DNA from: an uncultured Clostridia bacterium
GTDB lineage: Bacteria; Bacillota; Clostridia; Christensenellales; UBA1242
DNA length: 64,000 nucleotides
Direction: 5' to 3'
NCBI GenBank assembly: GCA_944360075.1
Contig: CALVTE010000001.1
Coordinates: 7,054 to 71,053 of the forward strand
The notes under the pieces were generated by a model. It saw only the letters and a program-made list of their open reading frames with translations. It had not been told where the DNA came from and did no database searches. Both the position numbers and the translations under genes were made by a program. Below, piece after piece: positions 3,091-57,330 of the stretch (position 1 is its first letter; every line of letters begins with the position of its first letter).

Positions 3091-3105
3091 ATTCTTCTCC
3101 TTTTT

Positions 3106-6100: not shown

Positions 6101-9100
6101 ACAATGGATGTCACCTTTTTGATAACGTTGATGGTGATATCATAAGTAAGCCCGTTTGAAAGTTCAAGACGAATGTTGCTGAAGCCGCCATTCAAAGCAG
6201 TTATAGTCAAATTTTTGTCGATGCTGACCACATTGACACCTGTTGTGTGATTTGTTTCTCTTATCAAAATTCGCTTGTTGGTAGTGTCGCTTGGCGTCCA
6301 TTTGGTCACTTCTATTGTGATGCTGTCGCCAACGTTGAGCAGAACTTCTTTGCTCTGGTTGATTTGAGCGTCAAGTGCATCGCCGCCTGTATACCTAAAC
6401 TTAAAGGATTTTGCAACGTTTCCATCACTTGAAGAAACTTCTATTGTCAAAATGCCAGCGCCAATCCAGTGAAGTGTTTTTGTTTGCTCATCGATATCGG
6501 CAATTTCTTGCGCCTCACCGTTTGAATTGTATGAGCTGGTGATTTTGTAGTTGAGCGCCGCTTCTATCACTTCTCCCTTAGACTTGGCATCAAAATTTAG
6601 AGAGGTCAAGTCGGTTGCTGTGACCAAATAGCCGTTGTATTGCTCAAGCTCTCCTGCATAGATAATGTCGTCGACAAGTTGCTCGATAATTATTGCAATT
6701 TGATAGCTCTCTATCATGCCACCCGCTTGGTCATACAAAGTGCAGATGATTTGACACTGACCTTTTTTCAGCGCCTGCAAAATATCTCCATCGATGGAAA
6801 GAAGGTCGCTGCCAGAACTTTGAGCAAATTGGATTTCAAGATGATGATAATCATTGCCCACAGAAGCAAAATCAAGTTTGATTTGACCGCCCACATACAT
6901 TTTTATTTCACCTTGAGTTGGGTCAACAATCTCAATGCCTTCAGCAATCTTTTCAATGGTGAAGAGATAGGTCTTTTCTGGGTCATCTTGGCTTATCGCA
7001 ACAATTTGTGCAACGCCGTTTTGAAGGAAATATAGACTTGTGCCTTCAATATATGCAATTTCTGGAGTAAGCACCTGGAAAACAACATCCTTGTTTGTGG
7101 CATCCACAGGCAGCACGTTTGCTTGCAAAGTCAACATACTGTTTGTGGTGGTGATGTTTGACGGAGTCACTTCAATCGAGTCAACATTTTGATAAACGTT
7201 GATTTCGAAAGTCAAAATCACTGTGGTGGAAACATAAACTGTCAAAGTTGCCTTTCCGCCCGCCACCGCGGTTATGGTTGAGCCCTCTGTTGTCAAAACT
7301 TTGCCTTGCGGACTTGCCGTCTGCTGATTTGAAACGGAAAGCGAAATATTGCGATAGATGCTGTTTGACGGAAAGACTTCTTTGATTGCAACTTCAAACT
7401 GGTCGCCTGCATTTAAGGTTTGCGGCATTGACTGCACCTTGCCATCAACAAGCACACCCACCTGGGCAGAAATAGGATAAGAACCTGTGTATCTGACGCT
7501 GACGCTTTCTGAGTAGCCAGACGTTGTTGTGGCGATAAGTTTTACAAGACCAGACTGGTTAAACCTAAGGGTGTCTCCCAAAATCACTCCCATGTTTTTG
7601 TCGTCAAGCGACCATGTTATGGTTTTGTTGGTGGCATCAGCTGGAAGGCAAGAAGCCGAGAAAGAAAGAGTGTTGAGCGCCGTCACGTATTCTCCATTTT
7701 GCATTTCAAGGTCAAGCAAAATTTCGATATCTTCAACTTCGCGCAAAACTTCAACTTCAAGCTCATAAGATGCTTTTTGTCCGTCAAGCAAAACCAGCGA
7801 GACTTGCACTTGCGCTTTGCCACCGCCAATTCCACGCAGACTGCCATCTGGCAAAATTTCAACAACCTGACCTCTGCCTGCATTGCTTGTTTGACTCAAA
7901 ATTTCAACTTGCACAGCGTTGGCATTTGCATTGCTTGGAAAAACGCTGTAATCAATAACGGACGAAGAGCCATAATCCATAACAATTTTTTCTTGGTTTA
8001 GCACAAAAGTTTTAGCCTTTCCAGCGGTATATTGCACTGAAACGGTTGTAGAGATGTTGCTGTAATCTTTATTTGCAAAAATTTTGATTGTTGCAGTGGT
8101 TGGATTGTCAGTCAAGAAAGTGACATCGCCGTCCTCGTTGACAGAAACTTCATTTGATGATGAATGATAAAAGAATTTGTTGTTTGTGGAGTCTTCTGGG
8201 AAAGACCTTGGCCTGAGAGTGACTGTTTTGTCAGCCGTGACAACATCTTCAATCAAAATGCCTGTTGCAGGGCTTTCAACATAGACCGCGATTTGCTCGG
8301 TGATATACACCCCTTCAGCCTTTTCAACTGAAACTGTGATTGTTGCATCGCCGCCACTGAAAAAGTATAGATAGCCATCTTTGACATAGGCCACATCTTC
8401 GTTTGAAGACGAGAAGGATACCTCTGTGCTTGTGAGATAGCTTGGCTCTACTGTGTAGTCAATGATTTGTGCAGCATCTCCAAGGGTGGCTGTGATGGAA
8501 TATTTTTCAAGTTGCAAGCTGTGAGCATAACCTGCCGTATAAACCACCGTCATGGTTTTGCTAAAACCGCCGTCAACAGTGGTCAAGGTGACCTCCACCT
8601 GCCCCGCACGGCTAAATGAAACTTGCCCAAGACTATTGACCGTTGCAATGCTTTGGTCATCAAGCTGGAAAATCACATTCTTGTTGGTGGCATTGCTTGG
8701 CAAAATTTGATAGCCTATTGAATATGTGCTCTCACCAGTGATGGCATAGGATGTGTTTAAAACAATGTCTTCCACCGGCCGTGTTACAGACAGATTGACA
8801 AAATCGCTATAGCCTCCATCCTCGGTGGTGGCTGAGATTGTGACGTATCCAATTTTTAAGGCTGTAACCAGTCCGTTTTGGTCAACCTCGGCAATACTCT
8901 CATCAGAAGAAGAGAAAATCACGTTTTTGTTTTCTGCCTCATATGGCGAAATTTCCCACGATAGTTGCAAATTTGAGCCAACGTGCATCTCCTGCTGTGG
9001 ACTGCTCAGTTCAATCTGGTGAACTCTGCTGTCAGTCACGTAGAAATAGCAACTTGCTGTTTTGTTGCCGTCAACTGCTGTTGCAGTGATGTATCCCCGA

Positions 9101-9378
9101 CCAAACCCCACAAAAGAAACATTTCCGTCAAGGTCAACTCTTGCAACTTCTTCATTTGTGCTTTGCCAAATCACTTCTTGATTTGTGGCGTTTGTTGGAT
9201 AGATGGTTGCTTCAAGCGAAATGGTCTCGTCGATATTTGCAGTGATTTCGCTTCGATCAAGCTCGATTCTGTCAACAGCAATAGAAACATTGCCAACCAC
9301 AATATCCATTGTGAAGTTGACCAGAATAATGATTACGAGTGGAATTGCCACCATTAAAAATATCATCAGTTTTTTCAT
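3106..9378 (-). CDS. Giant membrane-anchored surface protein with about 17-19 bacterial Ig-like (Big_2) domains and a C-terminal beta-helix-like domain.
   Basis: 2090-aa ORF. The N-terminal hydrophobic segment is MKKLMIFLMVAIPLVIIILVNF. There are many tandem modules with the Big_2 signature, e.g. IYPTNATNQEVIWQSTNEEVARVD, ILPSNATNKNVIFQLDDQSIATVN and VLPTDASNKTLVYSSSDQSIATVD. The last ~420 aa contain short repeated turns (NITRSNLVIDNVVLRG, NILIYNTIIENAHV, VTFKGCILRNSFAGGLIL, VTVEDSIFASS) suggestive of a right-handed beta-helix. The start overlaps the upstream permease stop by 4 nt. Confidence 0.85.
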   Translation of the reverse strand: MKKLMIFLMVAIPLVIIILVNFTMDIVVGNVSIAVDRIELDRSEITANIDETISLEATIYPTNATNQEVIWQSTNEEVARVDLDGNVSFVGFGRGYITATAVDGNKTASCYFYVTDSRVHQIELSSPQQEMHVGSNLQLSWEISPYEAENKNVIFSSSDESIAEVDQNGLVTALKIGYVTISATTEDGGYSDFVNLSVTRPVEDIVLNTSYAITGESTYSIGYQILPSNATNKNVIFQLDDQSIATVNSLGQVSFSRAGQVEVTLTTVDGGFSKTMTVVYTAGYAHSLQLEKYSITATLGDAAQIIDYTVEPSYLTSTEVSFSSSNEDVAYVKDGYLYFFSGGDATITVSVEKAEGVYITEQIAVYVESPATGILIEDVVTADKTVTLRPRSFPEDSTNNKFFYHSSSNEVSVNEDGDVTFLTDNPTTATIKIFANKDYSNISTTVSVQYTAGKAKTFVLNQEKIVMDYGSSSVIDYSVFPSNANANAVQVEILSQTSNAGRGQVVEILPDGSLRGIGGGKAQVQVSLVLLDGQKASYELEVEVLREVEDIEILLDLEMQNGEYVTALNTLSFSASCLPADATNKTITWSLDDKNMGVILGDTLRFNQSGLVKLIATTTSGYSESVSVRYTGSYPISAQVGVLVDGKVQSMPQTLNAGDQFEVAIKEVFPSNSIYRNISLSVSNQQTASPQGKVLTTEGSTITAVAGGKATLTVYVSTTVILTFEINVYQNVDSIEVTPSNITTTNSMLTLQANVLPVDATNKDVVFQVLTPEIAYIEGTSLYFLQNGVAQIVAISQDDPEKTYLFTIEKIAEGIEIVDPTQGEIKMYVGGQIKLDFASVGNDYHHLEIQFAQSSGSDLLSIDGDILQALKKGQCQIICTLYDQAGGMIESYQIAIIIEQLVDDIIYAGELEQYNGYLVTATDLTSLNFDAKSKGEVIEAALNYKITSSYNSNGEAQEIADIDEQTKTLHWIGAGILTIEVSSSDGNVAKSFKFRYTGGDALDAQINQSKEVLLNVGDSITIEVTKWTPSDTTNKRILIRETNHTTGVNVVSIDKNLTITALNGGFSNIRLELSNGLTYDITINVIKKVTSIVVSEENIVTASSSAVINATAYPNSATDKTLSYQIEKVDFARLEGNKVIFSSAGTVVVTISTMDGSNLHKQVSVTSTMGYLSSIALNVDSKPLAKGSSFSLFVTQTYPLDATNKDIHFKILSQSAVGGGQNDVVSISQSGSTILVKGLYGGSAVIRAYSQNSLGEEIFADCTVTVNTPVEGIDIDFEQELQFYQIGYVTSQSKLFFDTVISPADASNQEVDVFISNPNIASVEEGVITFKQPGIVTITFTSRDNTSGEKSVSYIFNYTGDYTLLEANLNLQAFDSGVLRLDAGAQVQLSLESFVPKDNKNVSLSLTTLTEERNDEQKPVFSFENGLIKALNGGQAIFTLSANNISVGTYTIVVNRQATDIVVEEGPVYVSSAGYQIQTSVLPTDASNKTLVYSSSDQSIATVDTFGGVSFSGYGTVVITIRLESNPAISKQITIEYTRNIKDISFSAPRDAMYATDYVVLEVNPQPIYADGYTYSFALSDESVASLAQQDKLHWVLRGKKAGQVKVTISVDGTGISYSKTFTFYAKITDISLKLDVNDGDEKYGHGKYRVFANRFVDDLGKLSNQYVMEYSTKPSGQDFAGQIEWSSSDEDIATVDQNGVVTIKGSGVVTITAPQVQPYEGANVVWDSYTFYLVDGINVYNFEQYKIAIKALAKINKEKTDNFSALVLHSDIAITDSDFNHSLNYNIYGNGRMIDFSGDKAYNKINITRSNLVIDNVVLRGWEFEDEAALSKLDSKGKILQISNHVTNILIYNTIIENAHVLAEVINSQVTFKGCILRNSFAGGLILNSQANDSFVADVTVEDSIFASSLLSCILFKPVYVNITDKYYDSKLTLIGDVRIYNWLTLDEFEGGSINSFFAEYGLSDIAADIISQIKNIISTNYSQYKYTYNGEDYYMLGVLNLSAKVANLFDFQSNGVIYKGQLNPNFNYVDGQINVAVSLIAFSGELKLNMLTLMGNGTPFIRPQDTYEGDTTILNQIVQPRRDDALGF

Positions 9379-22887: not shown

Positions 22888-25800
22888 TTATTTGGTTTTT
22901 TTGCTTTTGTTTTCTTTAACTTTTGAAACGATAAAGTAAACCACAACTCCACCGAGAATCACTGACGCAACTCCAATCAAAACTTTGCCGACAATTTCTG
23001 TGACATTGACAGGCTCGATTGAATCTTCGCCAACTGTAAAGGTGAATTTTACAGCGTCGCTCACGTTTCCAGCAGTATCTTTCACCGTGATGGTCACTTG
23101 ATAGCTGCCTTCTTTTTCAATTGTGTAAGAATAAGCATATTCTCCTTCAACATCCGATGAGTTTTTCACAGTCTCAGGTGCAGAATTTGTGCTTGTGTTT
23201 TTTACTGTGATAGAAATGTTGTCAAGCAGTTCTTCTCTGCTAGAGCCGCCTGGGTCATTGACAGTGACAAGACTTTCGTCAGCAATTTTGAAGTCGATGG
23301 GGTCGCCAACTTCATATTTTGAAGCGATAAACTTGTTGTCAGAATTTTCAATAGTAAGTGTTGGAGCAGAAACGTCACCAACCGACAAAGTGTAAGATTT
23401 TGTTTTTGTGCTGCCTATTGGCTGCCCTGCATAATCTTTTGCTTTGAGAGTGTAAGTGATGGTATATTTGCCATTTCTGTTGAGTTTAAGGTAAATATTT
23501 TCGCCTTCTTGGGTCAAATAAGTTTGGTCGTCTTGAGAAATATTCCAGTCAGAAAGCTTAAGAGTTTTAAGCGTGCTTGTCGTTCCACCAACGTTTGCAA
23601 CAGAAATGCTTACCGTCGAATTGTCAAGGTCAATTTGTCCTTCGCCTGTAACCTCACCGTTAAGTTTTTTAACTAAAACTCTGCTTGTAAGGTCGCCATA
23701 TATCGTTTTTGGATAGTCCGCATCGTCCATATAAAGGTTTACAGCAACTTCGCCTGAAGTGAAAGTAAATTTGCTGCTTTTAACTTCGTGGAGCTCAACA
23801 ACAACTTCGTCATTTGCATATTGTGGCAAACTGTTGATGTCAAGTTTTTTGTCATCACATTCGGCAACAATCACATTTTCTCCATTTTCATCAACTGACC
23901 TATAAATTTTGTAAACTTCGCCAGCCACAGCTGTGCCAGAGCCTTCAAGACTTTCAGTTCCGTCAGCCTTGTAAGCAAGTTGGTCTTGTCCTTCATTGTC
24001 AGTTGTCAAGAAAAGCTTGCCGTTTTCGCCTTCATCAGTCATTGAGAAATATTTTGCATCAGTTGGATAGCTGATAAGGAAAGCGGTGTATTGCAAGGTG
24101 TAAGAGCCCTTTGCGTTGGCTGTGAAAGAACCTTCCCCTTGGTTGAGAACATATTTGTCGTTGTCCGCTTCGGTAACATTGATCATATAGTCAATAGCAT
24201 AATTTTCGCTTGAATAAGCGTCAAAACCGATGTAGCCAAGCTCGTCACTTTCAGCAACTGAGATTTTTGGTTTTGCAAATGTTTCTGTCTGATCAACAAG
24301 AATGTCTTTTTGTGATGAGCCGATGTTTGAAATCTCAATCTTTCCAACAACAGGAATTTCTTCAACTTCATAGACAAAATATGTTGTCACTGAGTGGTTG
24401 CCTGCATCTGTGACAGTCACAGCAGCAATATACGTTCCGCCCACTGAAGGAGTGAACTGACCTGCCATAAGTTGGTAATCGCCAGAGCCTCGGTTTGGCG
24501 TAGCATTCATGCCTGAGCTGTGAACAACAATTTGAGAATCTTCTTCAACTCGGTATACAACAACAGCCGAAGTCATATAGTGAGGCAAGTTGTCGTGATA
24601 AGTCAGTGTTGGCAAAACGATAGTCTTGTCGTTGACATATCCCCCGTCAACATCTGGAGCTGAAACAACTTCATACAAGTATGGAGCCTCTTCATCTTTG
24701 ATATTTGAAACATAGCATTGTTGAGAATAGAAAGCAACATTGCCATAATCGTCAACTGCGTATGAGAAAAATTCGATATATGCTGCATTTTCTGGCTTTT
24801 CTGAAAGGTCAATATCATATTCGTCTTCCCCTTCAAGAATGGTCCAGCCAGAAGAAGAAACAACATTGTGCTCATCTGCTTGAACATACCATTTTTTTGA
24901 AGAAATGTTGATTTTTGAAGCTTCGTTAATCACATATTTGATGTCTTTTGTCTTTTCTCTCACGATTGGCTGTCTGCTTGAGTCAAGATATCTGTAAGCA
25001 GTGTGAAGTTCAACGTATGAGTCTCCTTCGCTAGTTTCTTCGCCATTGGAAGATACTTGATCTGAAGCTGTTGGAGCAGCCAAAGTGATGATGTCATCTT
25101 CAAGATATGAGTTTTTAAGTTCGGTTGAATAGCTGATGGTTGGAACGGTCATATCGTCAGCATTTGCAACAATGTCAAAACTATAGTCAGTTATGCTTTT
25201 GTTGTTTGTTTCAACGTTGTCGTCAGCATAGTAGTAAACATTGTAAGACTCTGTTTTAAATGTTTCACTACTGCTTGCCTCAATGCAGGCATAACCAAGG
25301 TCAATCCATCCTTGTTCGGTGGTTGGTGCGCCATTTTCAAACGCGAAAGCTTCTGCTGTGACAGGGTCTGTCTTTCCATCAGTTACAATAAGATATTTAT
25401 GCTCTTGGAGCCAATTTTTGATGGCGGCGTCATCACTCTCATAAATGCCGGCAAGAATCATTTGATTGCGGATGTAAGCATTGTCGTCATAGATGGCCTT
25501 GTAAACGCTTTTGCCATCCGTTGAATCTGATTTTGCGTTGAAGATAAGGTTGTAGTGGTCATAGCCTTGAATATCATAAACAAGAACACTGCTGTTTGAG
25601 CCTCTTCTGATTTCACGATAAAGGTTCAAATCTTTCTCTTCAACATGGTTATCATGGCCGCCGATTGCAAAAACCACAATATTTCTGTTTTCAGTTTTTG
25701 TTTTCACGTGGCTGAGTGCAGACTTGTAAGATCCGTCTTCATTCTTCACATTTTCAGCCCCTGCATCATAGATATAAGCAGTTGGAGACAGAGTGTCGCG

Positions 25801-27021
25801 CACATTTTTGATTGTAAAACTGTTTGTAGCTTCTTGGCCATAGAAGTCTGTTGCAGCATATTCAATTTTGTAGTCGCCATTTTTTGGAGCGGTAAAGTTG
25901 TTGTCTTCGTCAATAGCGTTCGCAATTGTTTCCACAACATTTCCGTTTTCCAAGCGGTAAACGTTGATCTCGTAAGAAACTGCAACACTTTCGCTTGCTG
26001 GAGAATCACTGGCTGAAGTGGTTGCATTGATTGATGGCAGCGCAGTCTTCACACCAACGATTGCAGAAGACGGTGCAGAAGACGCTCTTGAAATGGTCAA
26101 AGTATAGCCAGATTTGTTATAGCTGTCTTTATAATAGCTATCTTTGACTGAGAAAGTTTTGGTGACAGACTCAATTTGCGCGTCTTTTTGCGCGCCTTTT
26201 TGAAAGAAAGTGTAAACAACATTGAAGGTGCTGCCGTTTGCGCCTTCCAATAGGTCGCCGTCAATGTAATACTTTCCTTCAGCGCTTCTTGCAATCTTGA
26301 CATTTTCTGAGTAGCCTTGGTCGAGAGTGATGGTCATATATTCATTTTCAGTTGCCTCTTCTCCGTCAATTTTGACAGGCACGTTTTCAATTTCGTCGCC
26401 ATTTTTGTCAGTGATTGTTGGGATTGGCAAAATAATGTCTTTGAAAGAGCCATCTTTTTTGCTTAAAGAAAGGTCGTAAACTGAAGGCAAAATGTTTTTG
26501 TCGTTTGTGTCAAAAGTGAAAGTAACATCGTTGATAGTGCAACGAAGGTCTAGAGTGTATGTGTAAGTAACTCCATCATCAGTCACGCTATAAACAATTT
26601 CATATTGCCCAACTCGATCAGCATCAAATTGCACACCTGATTGGAATCCACCTTCTTGCTCAGAAGAATCATAAACCACAGTGCCATCGGCATAGCGAGC
26701 AACAACTTTTGAAGTGACGCCTTCTTCAGAAGCAGTTCCAATGATGTGCGCAGTTGTTGAACCACCATAATAATTTCCTGTTGGAATAGTAAACTTCCCA
26801 CCCTTTGCTACCGTTGTTTCAATGCCGCTTGCATCAACTTCGATTCTGTTTGTGTTTTGAGCAATTTGGCCGTCGCTCAATGTTGGGTTTGAGTCTTGTT
26901 TATAGTTTGCAGCCAAAGTTTGAATAGCCCCCACAGGCACAAAAGACCCGCACAAAACAAGGGCGGCGCCAAAGGCTGCACTTTTGAAAATATTTTTTGT
27001 TTTTAAGTTTTTTCTGTCCAT
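22888..27021 (-). CDS. Large cell-surface protein with a signal peptide, multiple Ig-like/cadherin-like beta domains and a C-terminal TM anchor.
   Basis: 1377 aa. The N-terminus is KSAAFGAALVLCGSFVPVGAIQTLAANY. Recurrent segments of the type ATDFYGQEATNSFTI, TVTDAGNHSVTTYFVYEV and TVKDTAGNVSDAVKFTFTV look like the ends of Ig-like domains. The C-terminus is VLIGVASVILGGVVVYFIV followed by the basic tail SKVKENKSKKTK. Confidence 0.8.
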   Translation of the reverse strand: MDRKNLKTKNIFKSAAFGAALVLCGSFVPVGAIQTLAANYKQDSNPTLSDGQIAQNTNRIEVDASGIETTVAKGGKFTIPTGNYYGGSTTAHIIGTASEEGVTSKVVARYADGTVVYDSSEQEGGFQSGVQFDADRVGQYEIVYSVTDDGVTYTYTLDLRCTINDVTFTFDTNDKNILPSVYDLSLSKKDGSFKDIILPIPTITDKNGDEIENVPVKIDGEEATENEYMTITLDQGYSENVKIARSAEGKYYIDGDLLEGANGSTFNVVYTFFQKGAQKDAQIESVTKTFSVKDSYYKDSYNKSGYTLTISRASSAPSSAIVGVKTALPSINATTSASDSPASESVAVSYEINVYRLENGNVVETIANAIDEDNNFTAPKNGDYKIEYAATDFYGQEATNSFTIKNVRDTLSPTAYIYDAGAENVKNEDGSYKSALSHVKTKTENRNIVVFAIGGHDNHVEEKDLNLYREIRRGSNSSVLVYDIQGYDHYNLIFNAKSDSTDGKSVYKAIYDDNAYIRNQMILAGIYESDDAAIKNWLQEHKYLIVTDGKTDPVTAEAFAFENGAPTTEQGWIDLGYACIEASSSETFKTESYNVYYYADDNVETNNKSITDYSFDIVANADDMTVPTISYSTELKNSYLEDDIITLAAPTASDQVSSNGEETSEGDSYVELHTAYRYLDSSRQPIVREKTKDIKYVINEASKINISSKKWYVQADEHNVVSSSGWTILEGEDEYDIDLSEKPENAAYIEFFSYAVDDYGNVAFYSQQCYVSNIKDEEAPYLYEVVSAPDVDGGYVNDKTIVLPTLTYHDNLPHYMTSAVVVYRVEEDSQIVVHSSGMNATPNRGSGDYQLMAGQFTPSVGGTYIAAVTVTDAGNHSVTTYFVYEVEEIPVVGKIEISNIGSSQKDILVDQTETFAKPKISVAESDELGYIGFDAYSSENYAIDYMINVTEADNDKYVLNQGEGSFTANAKGSYTLQYTAFLISYPTDAKYFSMTDEGENGKLFLTTDNEGQDQLAYKADGTESLEGSGTAVAGEVYKIYRSVDENGENVIVAECDDKKLDINSLPQYANDEVVVELHEVKSSKFTFTSGEVAVNLYMDDADYPKTIYGDLTSRVLVKKLNGEVTGEGQIDLDNSTVSISVANVGGTTSTLKTLKLSDWNISQDDQTYLTQEGENIYLKLNRNGKYTITYTLKAKDYAGQPIGSTKTKSYTLSVGDVSAPTLTIENSDNKFIASKYEVGDPIDFKIADESLVTVNDPGGSSREELLDNISITVKNTSTNSAPETVKNSSDVEGEYAYSYTIEKEGSYQVTITVKDTAGNVSDAVKFTFTVGEDSIEPVNVTEIVGKVLIGVASVILGGVVVYFIVSKVKENKSKKTK

Positions 27022-49711: not shown

Positions 49712-49736
49712 AAAAAAAAGCGGGCAAAAAGCCCGC
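49712..49736 (-). terminator. Rho-independent terminator distal to the solo repeat element.
   Basis: On the minus strand: GCGGGC, loop TTTTT, GCCCGC, followed by TTTTTTTT. Confidence 0.75.
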
Positions 49737-49744
49737 CTAGTTTA

Positions 49745-49908
49745 CTTATATATTACAGACCGCAGAGAAACAAGCGAGGCAAGGCTCGAAAAATGCTCAA
49801 GGCCAGGAGTTTAGCTTTTCTAAATGACTGGTTTTGTGCGTTTTTCAGTAAACGATGCAAGAAAAATTACAAGTAATTTTTCGGTCGCGCCGTTTATCTG
49901 TAGTCTGA
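49745..49908. repeat. Diverged solo copy of the 41.7-kb element, bracketed by a perfect 25-nt direct repeat.
   Basis: It shares AGAAACAAGC, GCAAGG(CTCGAA), GGAGTTT, AAATGAC.GG, TTCAGTAAAC and GCGCCGTTTAT, in the same order as the array copies. It is flanked by GCGGGCAAAAAGCCCGCCTAGTTTA at 49720-49744 and 49909-49933. Confidence 0.7.
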
Positions 49909-49930
49909 GCGGGCAAAAAGCCCGCCTAGT

Positions 49931-50179
49931 TTATTTATCTTCTTCATCCTTATCTTGCGACTTGGCTTCATCATCTTTGTCTGTTTTGTTCTCTGATGAA
50001 CTTTTTGGCATAGACACCACACCAAAAACCACCAAGATTCCAGCGATTGCCATGATTATCCCAGACACAACTTCGCTTTGAATTGAAAAACCAAAACAAT
50101 CACCCAGTGCTTGCAGCAGCACCACAACCGCACCTGATAAAGCCGTCCAAAAGCTATAAGATTTAATCTTGTCCTTCAT
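49931..50179 (-). CDS. Phage holin (phi LC3 / holin_1-like).
   Basis: 82 aa. KSYSFWTALSGAVVVLLQALGDCFGF and VVSGIIMAIAGILVVFGVV form two TM segments, followed by a charged tail. GGAGG lies upstream inside the bhlA 3' end. Confidence 0.7.
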   Translation of the reverse strand: MKDKIKSYSFWTALSGAVVVLLQALGDCFGFSIQSEVVSGIIMAIAGILVVFGVVSMPKSSSENKTDKDDEAKSQDKDEEDK

Positions 50180-50393
50180 CGTCTTGTGCCTCCAAAAATT
50201 GTTTTATTTCGTCAATATCCTGTTCGATGCGCTCCATTTTTGCCAAATGCAAAGTCAGCTGCGCGATGGTCTGGCGATAGGCCTCTTCGCGTTTTTCGCT
50301 GTCTTTAAGTTGCCAAAAAAACAGAAACACAAACAAAACGGCAAAAATTCCATTGCTGATTATCACTCTTAAAAATTCTTCCCAAAACTGCAT
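50163..50393 (-). CDS. bhlA: BhlA/UviB-family holin-like peptide.
   Basis: 76 aa. GIFAVLFVFLFFWQLKDSEKREEAY matches the BhlA pattern (GPFAVLF..LLFY..K....RE), and a coiled-coil tail follows. Confidence 0.7.
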   Translation of the reverse strand: MQFWEEFLRVIISNGIFAVLFVFLFFWQLKDSEKREEAYRQTIAQLTLHLAKMERIEQDIDEIKQFLEAQDDEGQD

Positions 50394-50494
50394 TTTGCAA
50401 AAGATTTGTCATTTCTAGCCAATTTTGAATTTTTCATAGCACCTCCACGAAAAATGTTTTGCAAACAAACTTTTGTCAGAATTGAAAGTGCTGA

Positions 50495-51973
50495 TTAGTT
50501 CTCAACGCACGCATTAAGCACAAAGGAAGAAATTTTTGAGCCCGCTTGGTCGGAAGAAATCGCAACGGAAAATTCGTCGCCATAGACCCCTGCAGGAATT
50601 TGCTGCAAAACCGAAGAGCCTTCAACCGAAAACTCCTTGGTTTGTTGGTCGCTTGTGATGACAACTTTGCATGGCAAAATGGATTTTATCAAAAAGGAAA
50701 TGATTTTTTTCTTTTTTCCATAAATGCCAAGATTTGTTTTCACGCTCTGCCATTTTGCCGGCAAAACAGCGCCAAATGATTTGCCAGAAAAAGAAAGTTG
50801 GCCGATTTTGCCTTGACTCTGACCATTAAAGCAAGCAACAAGTTTGCATTTGTAAGGATTGTTTAAGGCAAGCATCTGCTTAATGTCCACTCCCCGAACA
50901 ATCTCAACATGGCCGCTTTGCTCATCATAAACAAGCAAGGCATTGTTGCAAAACTGCAAGCTTTCGCATCCCACACTGTCGCCGTCAAAATCCATCTTGC
51001 AAGCCAGAAAATATTTGCCTTCAAAGCACTGGCCTGTGCAGTTTGCGTTGAAAGGTGAAAGCTTTTTTATCTCTGGGCAGTCAATACTGTGCACAGACGA
51101 ACCATTGAAATATTTTAGCCCTGACTTTTCCAAAAAATAAATTCGATCTCCGCTGTGAGCGATTGAATTTGGATAGATATAACTGTCCGATTGATAGAGA
51201 TGAGTGATAGAAAATTCGCTATCAGAAGAATACTCAGAAATTCTTGTTATGCCATACTCTCTGAAAATATAAACATAATCGTTGAAAGATATAAGTTTGG
51301 TCAAATTGCCTCTTCCATCAGTGAAATCCAAATTTGCACAAAGCTGATCGCTCCACTGCAAAACGTCAAGATTATCGCTATAAACAAGCCGTCCTCGAGC
51401 CTGAGCTGTGATGGCAAAAAGCCTGCCAAAGTGCGAACATAGCGAAATCATCTGCGGCGCTGACTGGCTGGTCTGCTGATTTTGCCCCACCAGCACCAAA
51501 AGGTTTTGACCTGGCCCTGAAAAAATCATTGAGTCAACCCCTTCAATTTTATATTTCATCCCAATCGGAGTGTCCGAAAACTGAGTGTTTATAACAAGGG
51601 TTGCCGGCCTTGAGGAAAACAAATTGTCATAGCAAACTTTGGCTTGGTCGTTGAAATACATGCAATAATACTTGTTTTCGTCACTGTCTTGGTCATACCA
51701 CTCAAAATCCCATAATGCCGTGACCTGATTTCCACTTATTGCCACAGTGGTTTCGTTTTCAAGGTTGGTTTTGGAAATAGGACTGGCAAAATCATCAAAG
51801 CCATAACCGCTTTCAAGTGCGCCGCTTTTTGTGCGGAAGTTATAGCAATGCTCTGTCAAATTGAAATCGCATAAACTTTGCTCTTTTTCTGTTTGAAATG
51901 GCGAAGAAAACATATCAAAAACAAATGTTTTTTTGCTGGTAGATTTTGTTTTTAGCCTGTTTTTGTAAAACAT
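50495..51973 (-). CDS. Large phage structural protein. By position it may be a tail-hub/head-completion protein analogous to P22 gp10.
   Basis: 492 aa starting at the ATG at 51973, with AAGGAGGAGGTGG upstream and an ATGA overlap with the preceding gene. It is beta-rich and Cys-rich. The function is inferred only from gene order after capsid and adaptor. Confidence 0.55.
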   Translation of the reverse strand: MFYKNRLKTKSTSKKTFVFDMFSSPFQTEKEQSLCDFNLTEHCYNFRTKSGALESGYGFDDFASPISKTNLENETTVAISGNQVTALWDFEWYDQDSDENKYYCMYFNDQAKVCYDNLFSSRPATLVINTQFSDTPIGMKYKIEGVDSMIFSGPGQNLLVLVGQNQQTSQSAPQMISLCSHFGRLFAITAQARGRLVYSDNLDVLQWSDQLCANLDFTDGRGNLTKLISFNDYVYIFREYGITRISEYSSDSEFSITHLYQSDSYIYPNSIAHSGDRIYFLEKSGLKYFNGSSVHSIDCPEIKKLSPFNANCTGQCFEGKYFLACKMDFDGDSVGCESLQFCNNALLVYDEQSGHVEIVRGVDIKQMLALNNPYKCKLVACFNGQSQGKIGQLSFSGKSFGAVLPAKWQSVKTNLGIYGKKKKIISFLIKSILPCKVVITSDQQTKEFSVEGSSVLQQIPAGVYGDEFSVAISSDQAGSKISSFVLNACVEN

Positions 51974-52524
51974 CAAAGCCACCTCCTCCTTGGCATTTTC
52001 CCATGAGGTGAAAGGCGACAAATCAGTTCTAAAGAATTTTTGAAACGCTCTTCAAAAATGTCCGCATCGTCAAAACGGCTTTGCATAAACAAAAACTCTC
52101 TTGCAACACCATAGGCAAAAATCCGCTCAGGCAAAAAACTGTCAACTTGGTCAGTTATGCTCAAAACTGGTGGCAAAATGCTATAGCAAACGATTGCTTT
52201 TTTGCAAAGAACAAAAATGTGGTCATCAAATTGCTTAAAACGCATTTTTCTGCCTAGCCCATTTTTGACATACAAAATTTTGTAAGGCTTAGCTGAAAAT
52301 TGACTGAGCAAAATTTTGCCATTTGCAACATCAAACTGCTCAATTTTTTTGATGGGCACAAATTCGCTTGCAACTTCATTGTTGACAAGGTTGAAACACT
52401 TTACAAGCCTGTCGGCAATTTCTTGCTCGCAGCTTTCAAGCGTCGAGCCTTGTTCCAGTTTTTGCGCAAGAGCTTGCTGCTCTATGAAATCACAGGATAG
52501 TTTTATTATATCTTTTACTAGCAT
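51973..52524 (-). CDS. Phage head-tail adaptor/connector-like protein, inferred by position and size.
   Basis: 183 aa. The N-terminal helical segment VKDIIKLSCDFIEQQALAQKLEQG...EQEIADRLVKCFNLVNNEVASEF resembles gp6/gp4-type head-completion proteins. It overlaps both neighbours. Confidence 0.45.
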   Translation of the reverse strand: MLVKDIIKLSCDFIEQQALAQKLEQGSTLESCEQEIADRLVKCFNLVNNEVASEFVPIKKIEQFDVANGKILLSQFSAKPYKILYVKNGLGRKMRFKQFDDHIFVLCKKAIVCYSILPPVLSITDQVDSFLPERIFAYGVAREFLFMQSRFDDADIFEERFKNSLELICRLSPHGKMPRRRWL

Positions 52525-52862
52525 AGTGCCTCCTTAAATTTGTTTACTTCTTGTTTCAGCATTTGGTTGTAAAGATTCTCGTTATATTTGTCAATCTCAG
52601 CAATAATTTTGTCCGAGTTTTCTCTTCTGGTTTTTAGGGCAAACTCGACAGCGCGCTCATCCAGGCAAGGATAAGGCAAAGTAAAGCAATAACTTCCTCC
52701 CACTTGTTCAACGCTATGCACCTCGTATTTTTGTTTTTTTAGATTGAAAACCACTCGATAACTCGGATCGACCTGCTTTAGCCTTTGACAGACAAAAAGG
52801 TTGTCGCTGTCAATAAAAACATAGTCTTTGTGGCTGTGAAAAACAAAATCTTCTTTTCTCAT
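52518..52862 (-). CDS. Hypothetical phage protein.
   Basis: 114 aa starting at the ATG at 52862, with GGGGG upstream. I recognised no motif. Confidence 0.5.
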   Translation of the reverse strand: MRKEDFVFHSHKDYVFIDSDNLFVCQRLKQVDPSYRVVFNLKKQKYEVHSVEQVGGSYCFTLPYPCLDERAVEFALKTRRENSDKIIAEIDKYNENLYNQMLKQEVNKFKEALC

Positions 52863-52915
52863 TTTTACCCCCAAATTAAAAGATAAAAAGGCAAAACTGT
52901 TTGCCTTTTATCTTA

Positions 52916-54118
52916 TTATAAACCAGAATCATCAGCGCCTGAAGCAGAACCTGAACCGATTGTGGAATTGATTTTTGTCAGAAGTGCTTGTCCACAAGGT
53001 TTGTCGCAGATAAGTTCAGCATATTTAACCAATGTTGCACTGTATGCAGGTTGGTCGGCGTTTTGCCTTAAAATTCTGCCGTTTTCACCTTCCAGCCACT
53101 TCCAGTCGCAAAGTTGATGAAGAGTGAAATCTTTTGTGCTTAAAAGGAACATTTTGCCGCTGTCAACAAATCTGTCTGCCACAACAGGAATGCCGTTGTG
53201 AGAGATGGTTTTAAAGCCCCCTTCCAAATCCATCACATCGATGTTGCGCTTGCAAGCTGAAAGATATTGCTGATAAGCTCTGCGAATTTCGGCAGTTGTT
53301 GCAATATAGTCAACTTGCGAATCGTGATTGAAATCAAGTTCGTCAATAGCCTCTTGAATAAGAGTGTCGGAAATATCTTGATTTGACGAAGGAGCAGAAA
53401 CGTAAGGCTTAAGCCATGGATAATCAGCCACGCTTACTCCATAAAGAGAAGTGTTTGTGGTGTCAAAAATTTTGCCAAGCCCAGTGATTTCATATCCTTT
53501 TGAGCCTTGGCAGTAAATTTTGTCGCCAGTTTTGATAGTTGCAGTGCCCTCAAAGTTGAAAGTTTTGTTGACTCTGTCAACATAAGTGATTTTTAGCTGT
53601 TTTGCGTTCACGCTTTCGCCAGTGTAAACATCAACAAGCATACCTTCAATAAGATTGTTGACCTTGTCGCAAGTGACAGTTTGACCGCTGGCTGTTGAAA
53701 CGGTTGCAAGCAGACCTGAGCCATCGCCATAAAGCATTCTGCCAAGATTGAAAGCGCTTGCTTTGACAAGTCCTTCCATTTCGTCAGAAAGAAGGTTTAC
53801 AAAAGCGCCCAAGTTGTTTGCAGAGGCTCTGATTGCCTTGTCTGAAAGTTCGATTTTTCCATACAAGTTTTTAAGCTCGGCAGTAAATTGCACATAACTG
53901 TTGCCTGAAGATTTTGGCAGTGATGCAGTTTCGCTTCCTGCTCCCACACCGCCGTTGATGCCAAAAGGTGCAAGTTTGCGGATTTCTTTTCCCCAAACAT
54001 CTTTGCTTGACATTTTGATTTTTGCCAAAAGTGGATTTGATCTTACGTTGAGTTGGTTGGCAACAACACCAAGATAAACATTTTTCAATGCACTTTCGGC
54101 CGATGTTAAAGTTACCAT
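52916..54118 (-). CDS. Phage major capsid protein (HK97-fold type).
   Basis: 400 aa. GKIELSDKAIRASANNLGAFVNLLSDEMEGLVKASAFNLGRMLYGDGSGLL follows the HK97-family pattern (...s.e.l.d....l...l...l......E...l.GdG.g...G). AAAGGAGAAA lies upstream, and the gene follows a scaffold gene. Confidence 0.75.
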   Translation of the reverse strand: MVTLTSAESALKNVYLGVVANQLNVRSNPLLAKIKMSSKDVWGKEIRKLAPFGINGGVGAGSETASLPKSSGNSYVQFTAELKNLYGKIELSDKAIRASANNLGAFVNLLSDEMEGLVKASAFNLGRMLYGDGSGLLATVSTASGQTVTCDKVNNLIEGMLVDVYTGESVNAKQLKITYVDRVNKTFNFEGTATIKTGDKIYCQGSKGYEITGLGKIFDTTNTSLYGVSVADYPWLKPYVSAPSSNQDISDTLIQEAIDELDFNHDSQVDYIATTAEIRRAYQQYLSACKRNIDVMDLEGGFKTISHNGIPVVADRFVDSGKMFLLSTKDFTLHQLCDWKWLEGENGRILRQNADQPAYSATLVKYAELICDKPCGQALLTKINSTIGSGSASGADDSGL

Positions 54119-54181
54119 AATTTCTCCTTTTTTTAAGTTTTTTTAAGTTTTTTTGCAAGAAAAAAGTCGAAATCTGAAAAT

Positions 54182-54847
54182 TTAGTTAAACATTTTGCTC
54201 ACAATCTCTTTTGCTTCGGCCAAGGAAGATGGAGTGTCAGGGCTTAAGCTTGACACTCTTTCTCCGCCTTGTGAAGAAATGACATAAGGTGGTTTGTGCT
54301 TTTCGAGATTGTTGAGATATTCTTGAATAACTTGATTTCGCACTTGCTCGTCCGACAAAACATATTTGTTTACAATCGGGTCGCTGGCTTTTGGTTTTGT
54401 TCCAGTCAAATGATCCAAAACCACCCCTGCCCATGCGACTTGATAGGGGTCGGCTACAGTTGAAGAAGCATGGATTTTTTGCTTGATTTCTTCTTCAAAC
54501 TGTTTTGCATCATCATTTGCCAAAAGGAATGATTCAAGATTGCTTTGAATTTGTTGACTATGCTCTTCCTGCTTTTGTTCAAACTCGATTTGTCCCTGTG
54601 TTTGGTCAGGCTGAGCCGTTTCTTTGCCTTCTTGAGCCATTTTGTCTTTTTGCATTTGACTGAGCTGTTGGCATTTTTTGGTAAACTCGCTCTGCAAATT
54701 GTTATAGGCCTCTAACAACTTATCTGCAGATTTGAATTTGCCATATTGCCCCTGAGAGCCGACTTCACTCGCAGCACTCTCTTCACTCGTTATGTTTATA
54801 ACATTTGCCGGTTCCACAGTCGGTTGTTCTCTGTTTTCTTCTTCCAT
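54182..54847 (-). CDS. Phage scaffolding protein.
   Basis: 221 aa, Gln/Glu-rich and predicted helical. It lies between portal and capsid. AGGAGG lies upstream, and the start is 1 nt after the portal stop. Confidence 0.65.
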   Translation of the reverse strand: MEEENREQPTVEPANVINITSEESAASEVGSQGQYGKFKSADKLLEAYNNLQSEFTKKCQQLSQMQKDKMAQEGKETAQPDQTQGQIEFEQKQEEHSQQIQSNLESFLLANDDAKQFEEEIKQKIHASSTVADPYQVAWAGVVLDHLTGTKPKASDPIVNKYVLSDEQVRNQVIQEYLNNLEKHKPPYVISSQGGERVSSLSPDTPSSLAEAKEIVSKMFN

Positions 54848-54848
54848 T

Positions 54849-56693
54849 TTAGCCTCCTATTTGTTTTTTATGTTCGCGTATATGCTCCAAGAAAATTTCT
54901 TCAAGCCTCGCGTTATCTTTTTTTGCCTTTTCAAAATCTTGTCCAAGCATAAAGGCGATATGCTCGTTGATATGCAGTTTATGCTCATCAATTTCCATGG
55001 TTTTGCAGACCACACCATCAAGCATTTTCAGATTTTCGCTTGCCGCCTTTTTGATGTGCAGTTCATTCAGATCTTGAGCATTTTCCCAAATGCCGAGCCC
55101 CAGCATCTCCATAATTTTGCATTTTGTGGTGTTTGAGATTTTGCCTTGCTCGTCTTGCAAAAGGCCGTTATCCAAAAGTTTGAAAACCATGTCTCGTTTT
55201 TGCGACGGCAAATTCAAGTTGTCCGTTTGCGCCGACAGGGTTATATCATCACTCGTGATATCGCTGCTTGAAAAATAAAACATATCCACCTGCCCATTTT
55301 CACCCACAATTTTTGCCAGTCTTGGAAAGAGTGCAAACTGCCGATATAACTTCAAAATATATCCAGCAAGCATTTTGCAGGCGTTTTTTATGCTTTCACT
55401 TGTTGCATTAAGCCTTGCTTCGTCTTGGCTAATCATAAGTTCAAGCGCCACACCACTTATGTTGGCAGAGGCATAATCTGTGCCAAGAGTCTCGCTCACG
55501 CCGCTGATTTTTGTAAATTCTTCCAGCAATTTTTCTTCTTCGTCATCAATGCCGTTTGGCAAGTTTTCTCCTTCCAAAAATTTTGGAGCCACCGAACCTT
55601 GCCTATACACCAAAATTTTGCCTGGGCAAAGGCCTTCATCTTCCAAATTGTCAAGGTCAACCGAGCCATCTTCCACGCTAAGCACACCCATTGAAAGCCT
55701 GTTGACAAACTCGTGCTTGCGGTTTTTTATGGCATTGTAAGCCCGTTGGACTGGAATAAGTCGCTCGATGATGCTTGCGCCCCAAAAACAGCCCGGCTCT
55801 TCGGTGCAAGTTTGTCTGATAAATGGAAAGTCTCGCTCTTTGTCGGTGCCAAGCTTGTAAGGCAGCGGCCCATCATAAACCAATTTGTCACCCGCAACTA
55901 TAACAAGTCTGCCTTCTGGAAATTGAGCATTTGGTCTTGAGTATTTTTCAATCACGATTGCGCTGTCAGCCTTGCCGCTTTCAATGATTTTTGGCACTGT
56001 TCCATTTGAGCCCAGCCCGCCAATGCCTTCAACTGTGCTGCCAAGGGCAAAAGTGTTGATGGTTTTGCCTTCAGTTTCAACGCCATACATCTGCTTGATT
56101 TGGTCGATTGAATATGCCTTTGCGTGAATTATGCTTTGGCACTGGTCAATATCTTCACAAACAGTCGAGTCGGGATAGATTTCAAAAGGGCTGAGCACCG
56201 ACACTTCAACTTCGCCGCTTCTGACCTCTCTGCCCTTTTCATCTTTGCCAACAACAGTGCCTTTTGACGGGTTCCAGCCCACTTTATAAAAAGCTGTTCC
56301 GCAAACTTCCGCCCATTTGATTGCTTTGTTGACAAGCTCTGGCAAATTGAGTTTGTTTTTGACCGCTTCAAAAATCTTTTTGCTCACCTTTGCCGAATGC
56401 TTGTCTCGCTCATCATTTGTGGCTGGAATGATGGCAATATCTGGCTTTATGTTGGCAAGTTTGGCATAACGAATATCAAAAATTGGCGCTATATGGTTGA
56501 AAACTTCTCTCTCTTGCCAAAAAAATTGTTTTTCGCTCTCTTCAATGCCGCCATAACCCACCGAACAAAATTGATTGCCCATCAAAAAGTTCATATTCAT
56601 CTTCCAGATAAGGTCAAAACTTTTTCTTGCCTGTGCTCTTTTTTCAAAATCTTCCAAAATTTGCCTTACCAATTTGTTTTCTTCTTTTTTCAT
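54849..56693 (-). CDS. Phage portal protein.
   Basis: 614 aa. The N-terminal segment RKSFDLIWKMNMNFLMGNQF and the later segment VSVLSPFEIYPDS...SIIHAKAYSIDQIKQMYG follow common portal patterns. Its position before scaffold and capsid is consistent. Confidence 0.75.
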   Translation of the reverse strand: MKKEENKLVRQILEDFEKRAQARKSFDLIWKMNMNFLMGNQFCSVGYGGIEESEKQFFWQEREVFNHIAPIFDIRYAKLANIKPDIAIIPATNDERDKHSAKVSKKIFEAVKNKLNLPELVNKAIKWAEVCGTAFYKVGWNPSKGTVVGKDEKGREVRSGEVEVSVLSPFEIYPDSTVCEDIDQCQSIIHAKAYSIDQIKQMYGVETEGKTINTFALGSTVEGIGGLGSNGTVPKIIESGKADSAIVIEKYSRPNAQFPEGRLVIVAGDKLVYDGPLPYKLGTDKERDFPFIRQTCTEEPGCFWGASIIERLIPVQRAYNAIKNRKHEFVNRLSMGVLSVEDGSVDLDNLEDEGLCPGKILVYRQGSVAPKFLEGENLPNGIDDEEEKLLEEFTKISGVSETLGTDYASANISGVALELMISQDEARLNATSESIKNACKMLAGYILKLYRQFALFPRLAKIVGENGQVDMFYFSSSDITSDDITLSAQTDNLNLPSQKRDMVFKLLDNGLLQDEQGKISNTTKCKIMEMLGLGIWENAQDLNELHIKKAASENLKMLDGVVCKTMEIDEHKLHINEHIAFMLGQDFEKAKKDNARLEEIFLEHIREHKKQIGG

Positions 56694-56920
56694 CTTTCTT
56701 CTCCACCTTTTTTCCTTAATTTCTTGCCGTATTTGAAGGGACTTTCAATCCCTTTTGGAATTTGCATCTGTCCAAGCAGCTGATACATTTCTTTCAAACA
56801 TTGCTCGCAAAAACAAAGGTCTTTTTTCAGCACCCCTTTTGTGGCAAAGCTGTATTTCGCCCAATTTGAACATCCTGAAAATTCGCATTTTGTCAAATGA
56901 CCACACTGACTAACTCTCAT
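56690..56920 (-). CDS. Small Cys-rich zinc-ribbon-like protein occupying the position where a large terminase would be expected.
   Basis: 76 aa: MRVSQCGHLTKCEFSGCSNWAKYSF...DLCFCEQCLKEM, with a basic tail. It overlaps both neighbours. Confidence 0.5.
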   Translation of the reverse strand: MRVSQCGHLTKCEFSGCSNWAKYSFATKGVLKKDLCFCEQCLKEMYQLLGQMQIPKGIESPFKYGKKLRKKGGEER

Positions 56921-57194
56921 CTTCTGCCTCCTTTAACAGTTTCAAAAGCCGCTTTTCTTCCTTTTCAAGCTCCTCGTCACTCATAAGCGAGATTTTTTCT
57001 TGATAGGTTTGATAATATCGCTCAAGCAAAATTTTGACAGCACTCACATCGGGGCTGAAATGTTTTTTTGTCACCTTTTTTTTGACAAGTTTTTCTTCCC
57101 CTTCGTCAAGCGCATATTCTTCAACAACTTCGTCTGCGCTGTAGCCAAGAGCTTTTTTGAGAAGTGCTTTTCTGATTTTGTCTTCGTCGTTCAT
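56910..57194 (-). CDS. Small DNA-binding / terminase small-subunit-like protein.
   Basis: 94 aa. KKALGYSADEVVEEYALDEGEEKLVKKKVTKKHFSPDVSAVKILLE resembles the A.G...E......dg....k....k..PDv.A..f.L pattern seen in many small terminase subunits. AAGGAG lies upstream. The assignment is by eye. Confidence 0.4.
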   Translation of the reverse strand: MNDEDKIRKALLKKALGYSADEVVEEYALDEGEEKLVKKKVTKKHFSPDVSAVKILLERYYQTYQEKISLMSDEELEKEEKRLLKLLKEAEDES

Positions 57195-57222: not shown

Positions 57223-57251
57223 ATTATATGGGGCAAAAGTCTGTCTTTCAA
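57223..57251 (-). promoter_or_regulatory. Sigma-A promoter candidate for the phage-like module, flanked by a 10-bp direct repeat.
   Basis: On the minus strand: TTGAAA (57251-57246), a 17-nt spacer, then TATAAT (57228-57223). AATTGTGGCA occurs twice, at 57268-57259 upstream of the -35 and at 57225-57216 overlapping the -10 and start site. Confidence 0.5.
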
Positions 57252-57330
57252 ACCTTACTGCCACAATTTTTCAAATTTTTGTAACATCGCAAGCAAAAAA
57301 CACTAAACTGATAATGTAGAGGTTTGTCAA

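Follow-up and report, generated by a model that had tools for sequence, protein, structure and literature searches.

A conserved phage head, neck, and nozzle operon beside comEC in Christensenellales, probably a domesticated podovirus-derived particle of the gene transfer agent kind

What is a compact set of intact phage head genes, with holins and with no large terminase subunit (TerL), lysin, or integrase beside it, doing next to comEC in the chromosome of an uncultured Christensenellales bacterium? The set in question is a 7.3-kb operon in a 64-kb stretch of contig CALVTE010000001.1; this whole stretch is here called the window. The initial annotation of the operon left three options, namely, a capsid-forming satellite, a domesticated particle-forming module, and a recent deletion remnant. 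Our analysis indicates that the locus is very probably a domesticated, vertically inherited particle operon, an option strongly supported by gene order, flanking genes, purifying selection, and co-divergence with the host. The ten genes probably represent the structural and lysis genes of a podovirus-derived Christensenellales particle of the gene transfer agent (GTA) or viriform kind. This assignment follows from a particle-building operon, a protein resembling the small terminase subunit (TerS-like) without a DNA-binding domain, holins within the operon, no replication, integration, or immunity genes, and strict vertical inheritance. We further lean toward the operon functioning as a DNA-packaging GTA with TerL supplied in trans. 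It is best filed as a GTA-like domesticated virus whose relatives are spread over several Christensenellales families and whose terminase has repeatedly become unlinked.

The operon consists of ten minus-strand open reading frames (ORFs), running from 57194 to 49931 and encoding, in the order g1 to g10, proteins of 94, 76, 614, 221, 400, 114, 183, 492, 76, and 82 amino acids (aa). All ten are intact and lie between comEC and an ABC importer, as first described, and successive ORFs overlap or abut with junctions of -11, -4, +1, +63, +53, -7, -1, +101, and -17 nucleotides (nt). A GGAG-type Shine-Dalgarno (SD) sequence precedes nine of the ten starts; the earlier statement that every ORF has a good one fails only for the BhlA gene. 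Downstream of the operon are comEC, holA, der, and plsY, and upstream, divergently transcribed, are the ATPase and permease genes of the ABC importer. The initial annotation saw no TerL, lysin, or integrase in the module, and none can be recognized in the 64-kb window or in the 10 kb past its upper end, which carry ileS, a CBS protein gene, nifU, iscS, a thioredoxin gene, thiF, and clpX.

The first gene, g1 (56910 to 57194), encodes a TerS-like protein without the N-terminal DNA-binding part. Its label holds for one portion of the profile: 46 of 49 orthologues match phrog_309 (terminase small subunit), solely at profile positions 197 to 265 of 319, that is, in the C-terminal third. The product of g2 (56690 to 56920) is zinc-ribbon-like, with four invariant cysteines (C12, C17, C38, and C41) kept in 88 of 88 orthologues; sequence and profile searches gave no Pfam, PHROG, or PDB relative. 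The portal label of g3 (54849 to 56693) is borne out, as this P22-type portal matches Pfam P22_portal (PF16510; E value, 2.4e-16; 59.8 bits, with a gathering cutoff of 26.1) and phrog_156 (9e-37). Located between portal and capsid, like P22 gene 8, g4 (54182 to 54847) is a probable scaffolding protein by virtue of this position; Pfam and PHROG searches returned no family match for it. The g5 product (52916 to 54118), first labeled an HK97-like capsid protein, is indeed a major capsid protein, of the podovirus type (NCBIfam NF033394, capsid_maj_Podo, 1e-77; phrog_14242, 9e-56). It shares 28 to 31% identity with actinophage proteins, the majority of which carry a capsid annotation, and has no N4-gp56 family match at an E value of ≤0.01. 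Directly after the capsid gene stop, the terminator scan placed a hairpin with a 10-bp stem (52886 to 52909, minus strand), and the P22 annotation has a stem-loop at the corresponding place, behind gene 5.

The next two genes occupy the positions of P22 orf69 and gene 4. The first, g6 (52518 to 52862), encodes a conserved protein with an intact orthologue in 77 of 79 loci; Pfam and PHROG gave nothing informative, and a profile search against the PDB was empty. The second, g7 (51973 to 52524), encodes a probable head-to-tail adaptor, judging from its position and from weak PHROG matches among its orthologues, 12 of 60 to phrog_2941 (virion structural protein) and 4 of 60 to phrog_2377 (adaptor Ad1). 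An hhalign comparison of g7 with P22 gp4 was negative, and its single-sequence structure model was unusable, with a predicted local distance difference test score (pLDDT) of 38. Thus, the scaffold and adaptor labels of the initial annotation agree with gene position and, for the adaptor, with these weak matches; hhalign and the family searches did not add to them.

The 492-aa protein encoded by g8 (50495 to 51973) extends the operon beyond a head module. Its AlphaFold2 model, built from a 57-sequence alignment, has a pLDDT of 88.6 and a predicted template modeling (TM) score (pTM) of 0.88, and a Foldseek search of the PDB matched it best to the Pa223 tail (9nwi_Y; E value, 1e-19; TM scores, 0.74/0.71). 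Further matches include GP4, VP1, the SU10 nozzle, P22 gp10 (8eap_D; E value, 9e-12), and T7 gp12; indeed, the top 27 PDB matches all belong to podovirus or crAss-like short-tail assemblies. The sequence profile gave a marginal match to the SU10 tail protein 7z47_G (E value, 0.0097) and the comparison with P22 gp10 by sequence was negative, so the kinship with gp10 is visible in the fold alone. According to the predicted structure, g8 is a podovirus tail nozzle or hub protein, with a beta-propeller-based fold like that of P22 gp10 and T7 gp12 and a place downstream of the adaptor-position gene. The gp10 assignment made earlier is in agreement with this match, and the accompanying claim that the cluster has no tail gene has to be withdrawn. 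Because g8 is a tail nozzle by predicted structure, the operon comprises head, neck, and nozzle.

The last two genes fall into the families with which they were labeled. The g9 product (50163 to 50393) is a BhlA/UviB-family holin-like protein (PF10960, 8.7e-14; phrog_2429), of a type that PHROGs classes under bacteriocin production or immunity, and g10 (49931 to 50179) encodes a Phage_holin_1 holin (PF04531, 4.8e-5, above cutoff; phrog_297, 4e-11). A 22-codon ORF with a good SD sequence (50371 to 50436, minus strand) overlaps the BhlA start, and two related loci, L002 and L003 (L numbers designate loci of relatives), have a 35-aa gene called at the matching position; the small ORF may provide translational coupling or encode a small lysis regulator. 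The idea of an ATPase hidden among the ten products was rejected, as the sole Walker-A-like string lies inside the portal and no P-loop family matched.

The analogy with the P22 order 3-2-1-8-5-4-10 is a good one. The P22 module 3-2-1-8-5-orf69-4-10-26 and the operon share the order 1-8-5-orf69-4-10, the Pfam family of the portal, and the gp10 nozzle fold. They differ in sequence, with no similarity to gp4 or gp10, and in content: the window has no TerL in cis and contains none of the needle (gp26), ejection proteins, tailspike, immunity region, or lysogeny and replication modules of P22-like prophages. A P22-like gene order that ends after the gp10 position is what one might expect of a recent deletion remnant of such a prophage, decaying neutrally. 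The state of the operon in related genomes makes this origin scarcely credible.

To place the locus among its relatives, we scanned GTDB with one genome per species. A relative of the capsid protein is encoded by 173 species representatives, and the best 80 of these 173 loci were kept; their capsid identity ranges from 97% to 61%, and all come from metagenome-assembled genomes of uncultured Clostridia or Christensenellales. The ten-gene set has the same order across the 80 species-level loci, with all ten ORFs complete in 60 of them and the rest almost all clipped by contig ends. ORFs are intact in 79 loci. The sole exception at the species level is L055 (UMGS1812; positions 1 to 4965), where g1 to the scaffold-position gene went undetected upstream of an intact capsid gene despite 4.9 kb of contig; this gap may reflect either a genuine deletion or an assembly error. 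The ORFs differ little in length over 76 to 136 loci (portal, 504 to 669 aa; capsid, 380 to 425 aa; nozzle, 418 to 506 aa).

We then compared the window with its two closest species, at synonymous divergences (dS) of 0.4 to 1.4, which are near saturation. Ratios of nonsynonymous to synonymous substitution rates (dN/dS) range from 0.02 to 0.26 across all ten operon genes. They are 0.02 to 0.03 for g1, 0.05 to 0.13 for g2, 0.04 to 0.05 for the portal, 0.02 to 0.04 for the capsid, 0.05 to 0.06 for g6, 0.10 for g7, 0.07 for the nozzle, 0.04 to 0.13 for BhlA, and 0.12 to 0.22 for the holin, with the operon's highest values, 0.21 to 0.26, in the scaffold-position gene. The flanks give 0.04 to 0.05 for the ABC importer, 0.09 to 0.14 for comEC and holA, and 0.23 to 0.25 for x334, an uncharacterized flank gene. 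Purifying selection on the operon is as strong as on the neighboring housekeeping genes. Every gene has a dN/dS far under 1, ORFs are intact apart from L055, and the architecture persists at capsid identities as low as 61%. These data refute both neutral decay and a recent deletion remnant, and they sustain the earlier impression that this is not a decaying prophage.

The position of the operon is equally stable. In loci with 70 to 97% capsid identity, it lies between the same ABC importer upstream and comEC-holA-der-plsY downstream, and independent assemblies from many samples show identical junctions with host genes on both sides. One assembly (L005, 18836 to 20595) has comEC split into two ORFs of 294 and 286 aa, next to an intact particle operon. 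Across 45 species, portal and capsid distances correlate with those of the neighboring ABC importer (Mantel r = 0.91; 0 of 999 permutations as high). The GC content of TerL-anchored and other later-fetched loci spans 0.29 to 0.64, consistent with long residence in hosts of different composition. Collections of viral sequences hold few relatives: IMG/VR has only 12 among 2.9 million viral contigs, and in the GenBank phage collection the matches, at ≤31% identity, are confined to actinophages and uncultured Caudoviricetes. Relatives of the capsid protein on long chromosomal contigs number in the thousands, and the family as a whole forms 406 clusters at 50% identity (E value, ≤1e-30). Named relatives belong to "Candidatus Borkfalkia," "Candidatus Coproplasma," "Subdoligranulum sp. 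CAG:314," and the cultured Maliibacterium massiliense, all of which we take to be Christensenellales in GTDB; none of the named distant capsid representatives is a Faecalibacterium.

These results also bear on the idea of a capsid-forming satellite that borrows its terminase, and perhaps its fibers, from a helper phage. Capsid-forming phage-inducible chromosomal islands (cf-PICIs) are mobile islands that combine an integrase and a replication module with att sites and that rely on helper-phage tails. Like them, the window has a small capsid and portal module in a bacterial chromosome, and a compact capsid module with a TerS-like gene and with TerL not in cis is what a satellite of this sort would show. 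However, Pfam and PHROG scans of the ten genes and both flanks found no integration, replication, or regulatory and lysogeny genes (flanking direct repeats and att sites were not searched for), and tRNA and Rfam scans of the window gave no matches. Moreover, the element occupies the same syntenic site across species with near-saturated synonymous sites, diverges in step with the host flank, and encodes its own nozzle, and its contiguous relatives have their own TerL. Given this conservation, the dN/dS values, synteny, co-divergence, and rarity among viral contigs, a mobile satellite is very unlikely.

If the operon is a domesticated particle operon, where is its terminase? In one subclade of Christensenellales, the operon is directly preceded by genes for a 479-aa TerL (Terminase_6N/6C) and an 833-aa protein. 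With this TerL as the seed, a metagenome scan yielded at least 460 relatives, and the TerL family comprises at least 5,020 proteins. In most sufficiently long TerL loci, TerL is followed at once by the 94-aa gene, the portal, the scaffold-position gene, the capsid, and the rest. In L196, for example, host genes (gyrB, gyrA, and SSB) precede an operon start made up of a sigma-like gene, a divergent 264-aa gene, and TerL, after which come g1, g2, portal, scaffold, capsid, g6, g7, nozzle, a 386-aa protein, DUF7934, BhlA, and holin. In other genomes, TerL lies apart from the head genes, between groESL and the hrcA-grpE-dnaK operon, where it is intact and has the same sigma-like and divergent neighbors, followed by a DUF285/BspA leucine-rich-repeat (LRR) protein of variable length (747 to 873 aa). 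Relatives thus explain the missing TerL of the window, as they have TerL either directly before the 94-aa gene or at another chromosomal locus; the arrangement in the window's own clade is head-only. TerL look-ups and the metagenome scan gave no TerL contig that overlaps any head-only locus.

One pair of loci captures the uncoupling. L101 (5143 to 14041) and L105 (5158 to 14058) share an 8.9-kb block that is 94% identical and has differing flanks on both sides; it contains two unknown genes, a sigma-like gene, TerL, and a 744-aa protein, and the head operon follows in one of the two only. Since the loci differ in head operon attachment despite 94% identity, the linkage between TerL and the head genes has been broken at shallow evolutionary depth.

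TerL has the same companions whether or not a head operon is attached, namely, a small sigma-70 region-4/DUF1492 (ArpU-like) protein and a divergent 228- to 286-aa protein without known domains (L088, 8507 to 9753; L079, 378 to 1816; L101, 8321 to 9834; L196, 8467 to 9904). They are a probable regulatory pair of the element. DUF285/BspA-type LRR proteins of 545 to 873 aa, with repeats about 42% identical, are encoded just after the holin or just after TerL, depending on the clade (L001 to L003, 14271 to 15908; L088, 11794 to 14277; L097 and L099; L085, 20886 to 21167). These proteins are candidates for the receptor-binding protein of the particle; the window has none.

A longer contiguous relative is found in a cultured organism with a closed genome, Maliibacterium massiliense (L194; LR026983.1, 2215459 to 2236634). 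Its order is TerL, 172 aa, 254 aa, portal (680 aa), 405 aa, capsid, 136 aa, 189 aa, 477 aa, 807 aa, DUF7934, and 704 aa. The locus could be an ancestral phage form or a GTA. Its extra large proteins and small upstream genes are also compatible with a real prophage, and this lends something to the view that the window operon is one part of a working temperate podophage, the remaining modules of which are beyond the window or have been split off by misassembly. Independent assemblies that share host-gene junctions, and the housekeeping genes that fill the window and its 10-kb flank, make this view highly improbable.

The main rival to a DNA-packaging GTA is a domesticated particle of another role, or one whose terminase is lost in this clade. 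Such a particle might kill or lyse in the manner of PBSX, or it might be a DNA-free or cargo-carrying capsid freed by holin lysis, possibly with no cognate TerL in the clade. PBSX illustrates that a GTA-like element need not deliver DNA (PMC12946183). None of TerL, DUF7934, and the LRR protein is encoded in cis, the searched sequence of this species yielded no TerL, and the PHROG class of the BhlA/UviB-type protein would suit a particle of this kind as well. However, g1 and the portal rank with the genes under the tightest constraint (dN/dS, 0.02 to 0.05), which is hard to explain without DNA packaging, and the TerL family is large and intact even away from the head genes. We regard a role other than gene transfer as unlikely, while taking it seriously; selection this strict on g1 and the portal speaks for DNA packaging as the function that is still maintained.

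A GTA built from these parts might work as follows. Upon induction, a subpopulation of cells would assemble small capsids on the portal with the help of the scaffold-position protein. The large terminase, supplied from another genomic locus, would dock via g1 and, as g1 has no DNA-binding domain, would package host DNA by the headful with little sequence preference. The portal would then be closed by g7 as adaptor and g8 as nozzle. Release would depend on BhlA and the holin together with a wall hydrolase from an unlinked locus, and receptors would be bound by an LRR protein encoded elsewhere.

Cells that receive alphaproteobacterial GTAs need the ComEC channel to take up the DNA. This raises a broader proposal, which we put forward tentatively and consider possible rather than probable: the order Christensenellales as a whole would have a podovirus-type GTA of ancient domestication, separate from the Faecalibacterium prausnitzii element FpGTA and with a structural operon repeatedly uncoupled from its terminase. 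This GTA would be the genetic basis of the packaging of 4- to 6-kb fragments by Christensenellaceae in human fecal virus-like particles, and its adjacency to comEC would link production and uptake. The GTA reading itself has independent support: nanopore sequencing of fecal virus-like particles has revealed GTA-like packaging of fragments of ~4.1 kb for the genus HGM11616 and 6.3 kb for the genus QANA01, both placed by the authors in Christensenellaceae, and no locus was named for either (PMC12946183; Nat Commun 2026). As the operon measures 7.3 kb, fragments of 4.1 to 6.3 kb could not carry it whole.

Several points weigh against a GTA. A tblastn search of the 64-kb window and inspection of the 10 kb past its upper end gave no TerL for this species, and among the loci examined, no genome was shown to have both halves, TerL and head operon, at separate loci. 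An endolysin and a receptor-binding protein are likewise missing in cis, and the window lacks the 386-aa protein of L196 and the DUF7934 protein of many relatives, both of which are encoded between nozzle and BhlA. The scaffold and adaptor roles are assigned by position. HGM11616 and QANA01 could not be mapped onto the window, and the particle of this organism is predicted from its genes.

We found no paper describing the window locus, and the closest comparisons are with established GTAs. RcGTA, from Proteobacteria, is siphovirus-like, with a long tail, an HK97-type prohead protease, and TerL inside its main cluster. RcGTA and other alphaproteobacterial GTAs resemble the window locus in being structural clusters of phage origin that lack genes for replication and integration, in passing vertically with the host under purifying selection, in having a truncated TerS, and, probably, in relying on auxiliary genes elsewhere in the genome (see the review cited in PMC12946183). 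FpGTA is a podovirus-like, two-locus GTA whose TerS has no DNA-binding domain, and its particles are about 40 nm in size, show no visible tail, and carry 8.4 to 8.9 kb of host DNA (PMC12946183). Both FpGTA and the window locus, the latter known from genes alone, are chromosomal operons of about ten ORFs in gut Clostridia lineages; the products include portal and capsid proteins, a TerS-like protein that lacks a DNA-binding domain, and proteins of the short-tailed-phage type. The functions of FpGTA, and probably those of the window element, are split over more than one locus. They differ in several respects. FpGTA operon I contains TerL, which the window operon lacks in cis; a Prp-type protease gene lies between the FpGTA portal and capsid genes, where the window has its scaffold-position gene; and the FpGTA lysis genes form a separate operon II, whereas BhlA and the holin end the structural operon of the window. 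The FpGTA capsid (RCH50849.1) is named "N4-gp56 family" in a proteomics table (PMC12946183) and that of the window is NF033394, a comparison by description only. Set apart by these descriptions, the two elements do not seem to be orthologues and are probably independent domestications; in its proposed mode of action, the window element resembles FpGTA and, less closely, RcGTA.

Transcription of the operon appears to start from one site. As the initial annotation proposed, a sigma-70-type promoter, TTGAAA-17-TATAAT, precedes g1 (57223 to 57251, minus strand); it matches 11 of 12 positions and is the best site between 49500 and 57500. Both hexamers are enriched in 66 nonredundant regions upstream of g1 in relatives. 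The repeat reported to flank this promoter, AATTGTGGCA, is real, with its second copy restricted to the window and a close relative, L008. Seven nucleotides upstream of the -35 element lies a TGGCAGT box (57257 to 57263, minus strand), aligned by eye across relatives, with TGGCAG or GGCAGT present in 25 to 26 of the 66 nonredundant regions and 0.6 to 0.8 expected; it is a possible regulator site. Other clade-conserved boxes are TGTTAC, ~20 nt above TGGCAGT (about 57280 to 57290), and AAAGTTGC, between the -10 element and the SD sequence. All three boxes are strongly enriched over background, and part of this conservation may stem from the divergent promoter of the ABC importer. We rejected TGGCAGT as a sigma-54 -24/-12 promoter, as the spacing is 1 to 2 bases too long and a canonical -10 element follows. 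A motif common to the regions upstream of TerL and of g1 was sought and not found, and Spo0A boxes occur upstream of TerL in only 4 of 76 regions.

At the other end, the operon terminator is present in two copies (49718 to 49938, minus strand). A 31-nt direct repeat containing the terminator hairpin occurs at 49908 to 49938 and, 189 bp away, at 49719 to 49749, both between the holin gene and comEC, with a T-run in the distal copy only. The gap between holin and comEC is ~190 bp shorter in the close relatives L008 and L009, and other relatives have a variable insert of 0 to 4.5 kb. The doubled repeat may be the scar of a lost cassette.

The remaining window is the core chromosome of a spore-former, with tuf, fusA, ligA, pcrA, spoIVA, yqfD, era, and a murein ligase gene. 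It also encodes two giant Ig-repeat proteins of the surface type, one of 2,090 aa with five Big_2 domains (3106 to 9378), whose exact sequence has no database record, and one of 1,377 aa with one Big_13 domain (22888 to 27021, minus strand).

Christensenellales are widespread, heritable, and health-associated gut bacteria, mostly uncultured. According to published data, members of this group release capsids that contain short, random chromosomal fragments, and no locus has been named for them (PMC12946183). The operon described here, defined by ten conserved genes, is a concrete candidate for the locus behind packaging in Christensenellaceae, and the cultured relative Maliibacterium massiliense makes this candidate open to experiment. 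If the interpretation is true, gut Firmicutes would have a second podovirus-type GTA, apparently of independent origin, and its relatives, with the terminase linked in some and unlinked in others, would form a natural series for studying how domesticated viruses are rewired. This would also suggest that capsid-mediated gene flow is a common, selected trait in gut Firmicutes.

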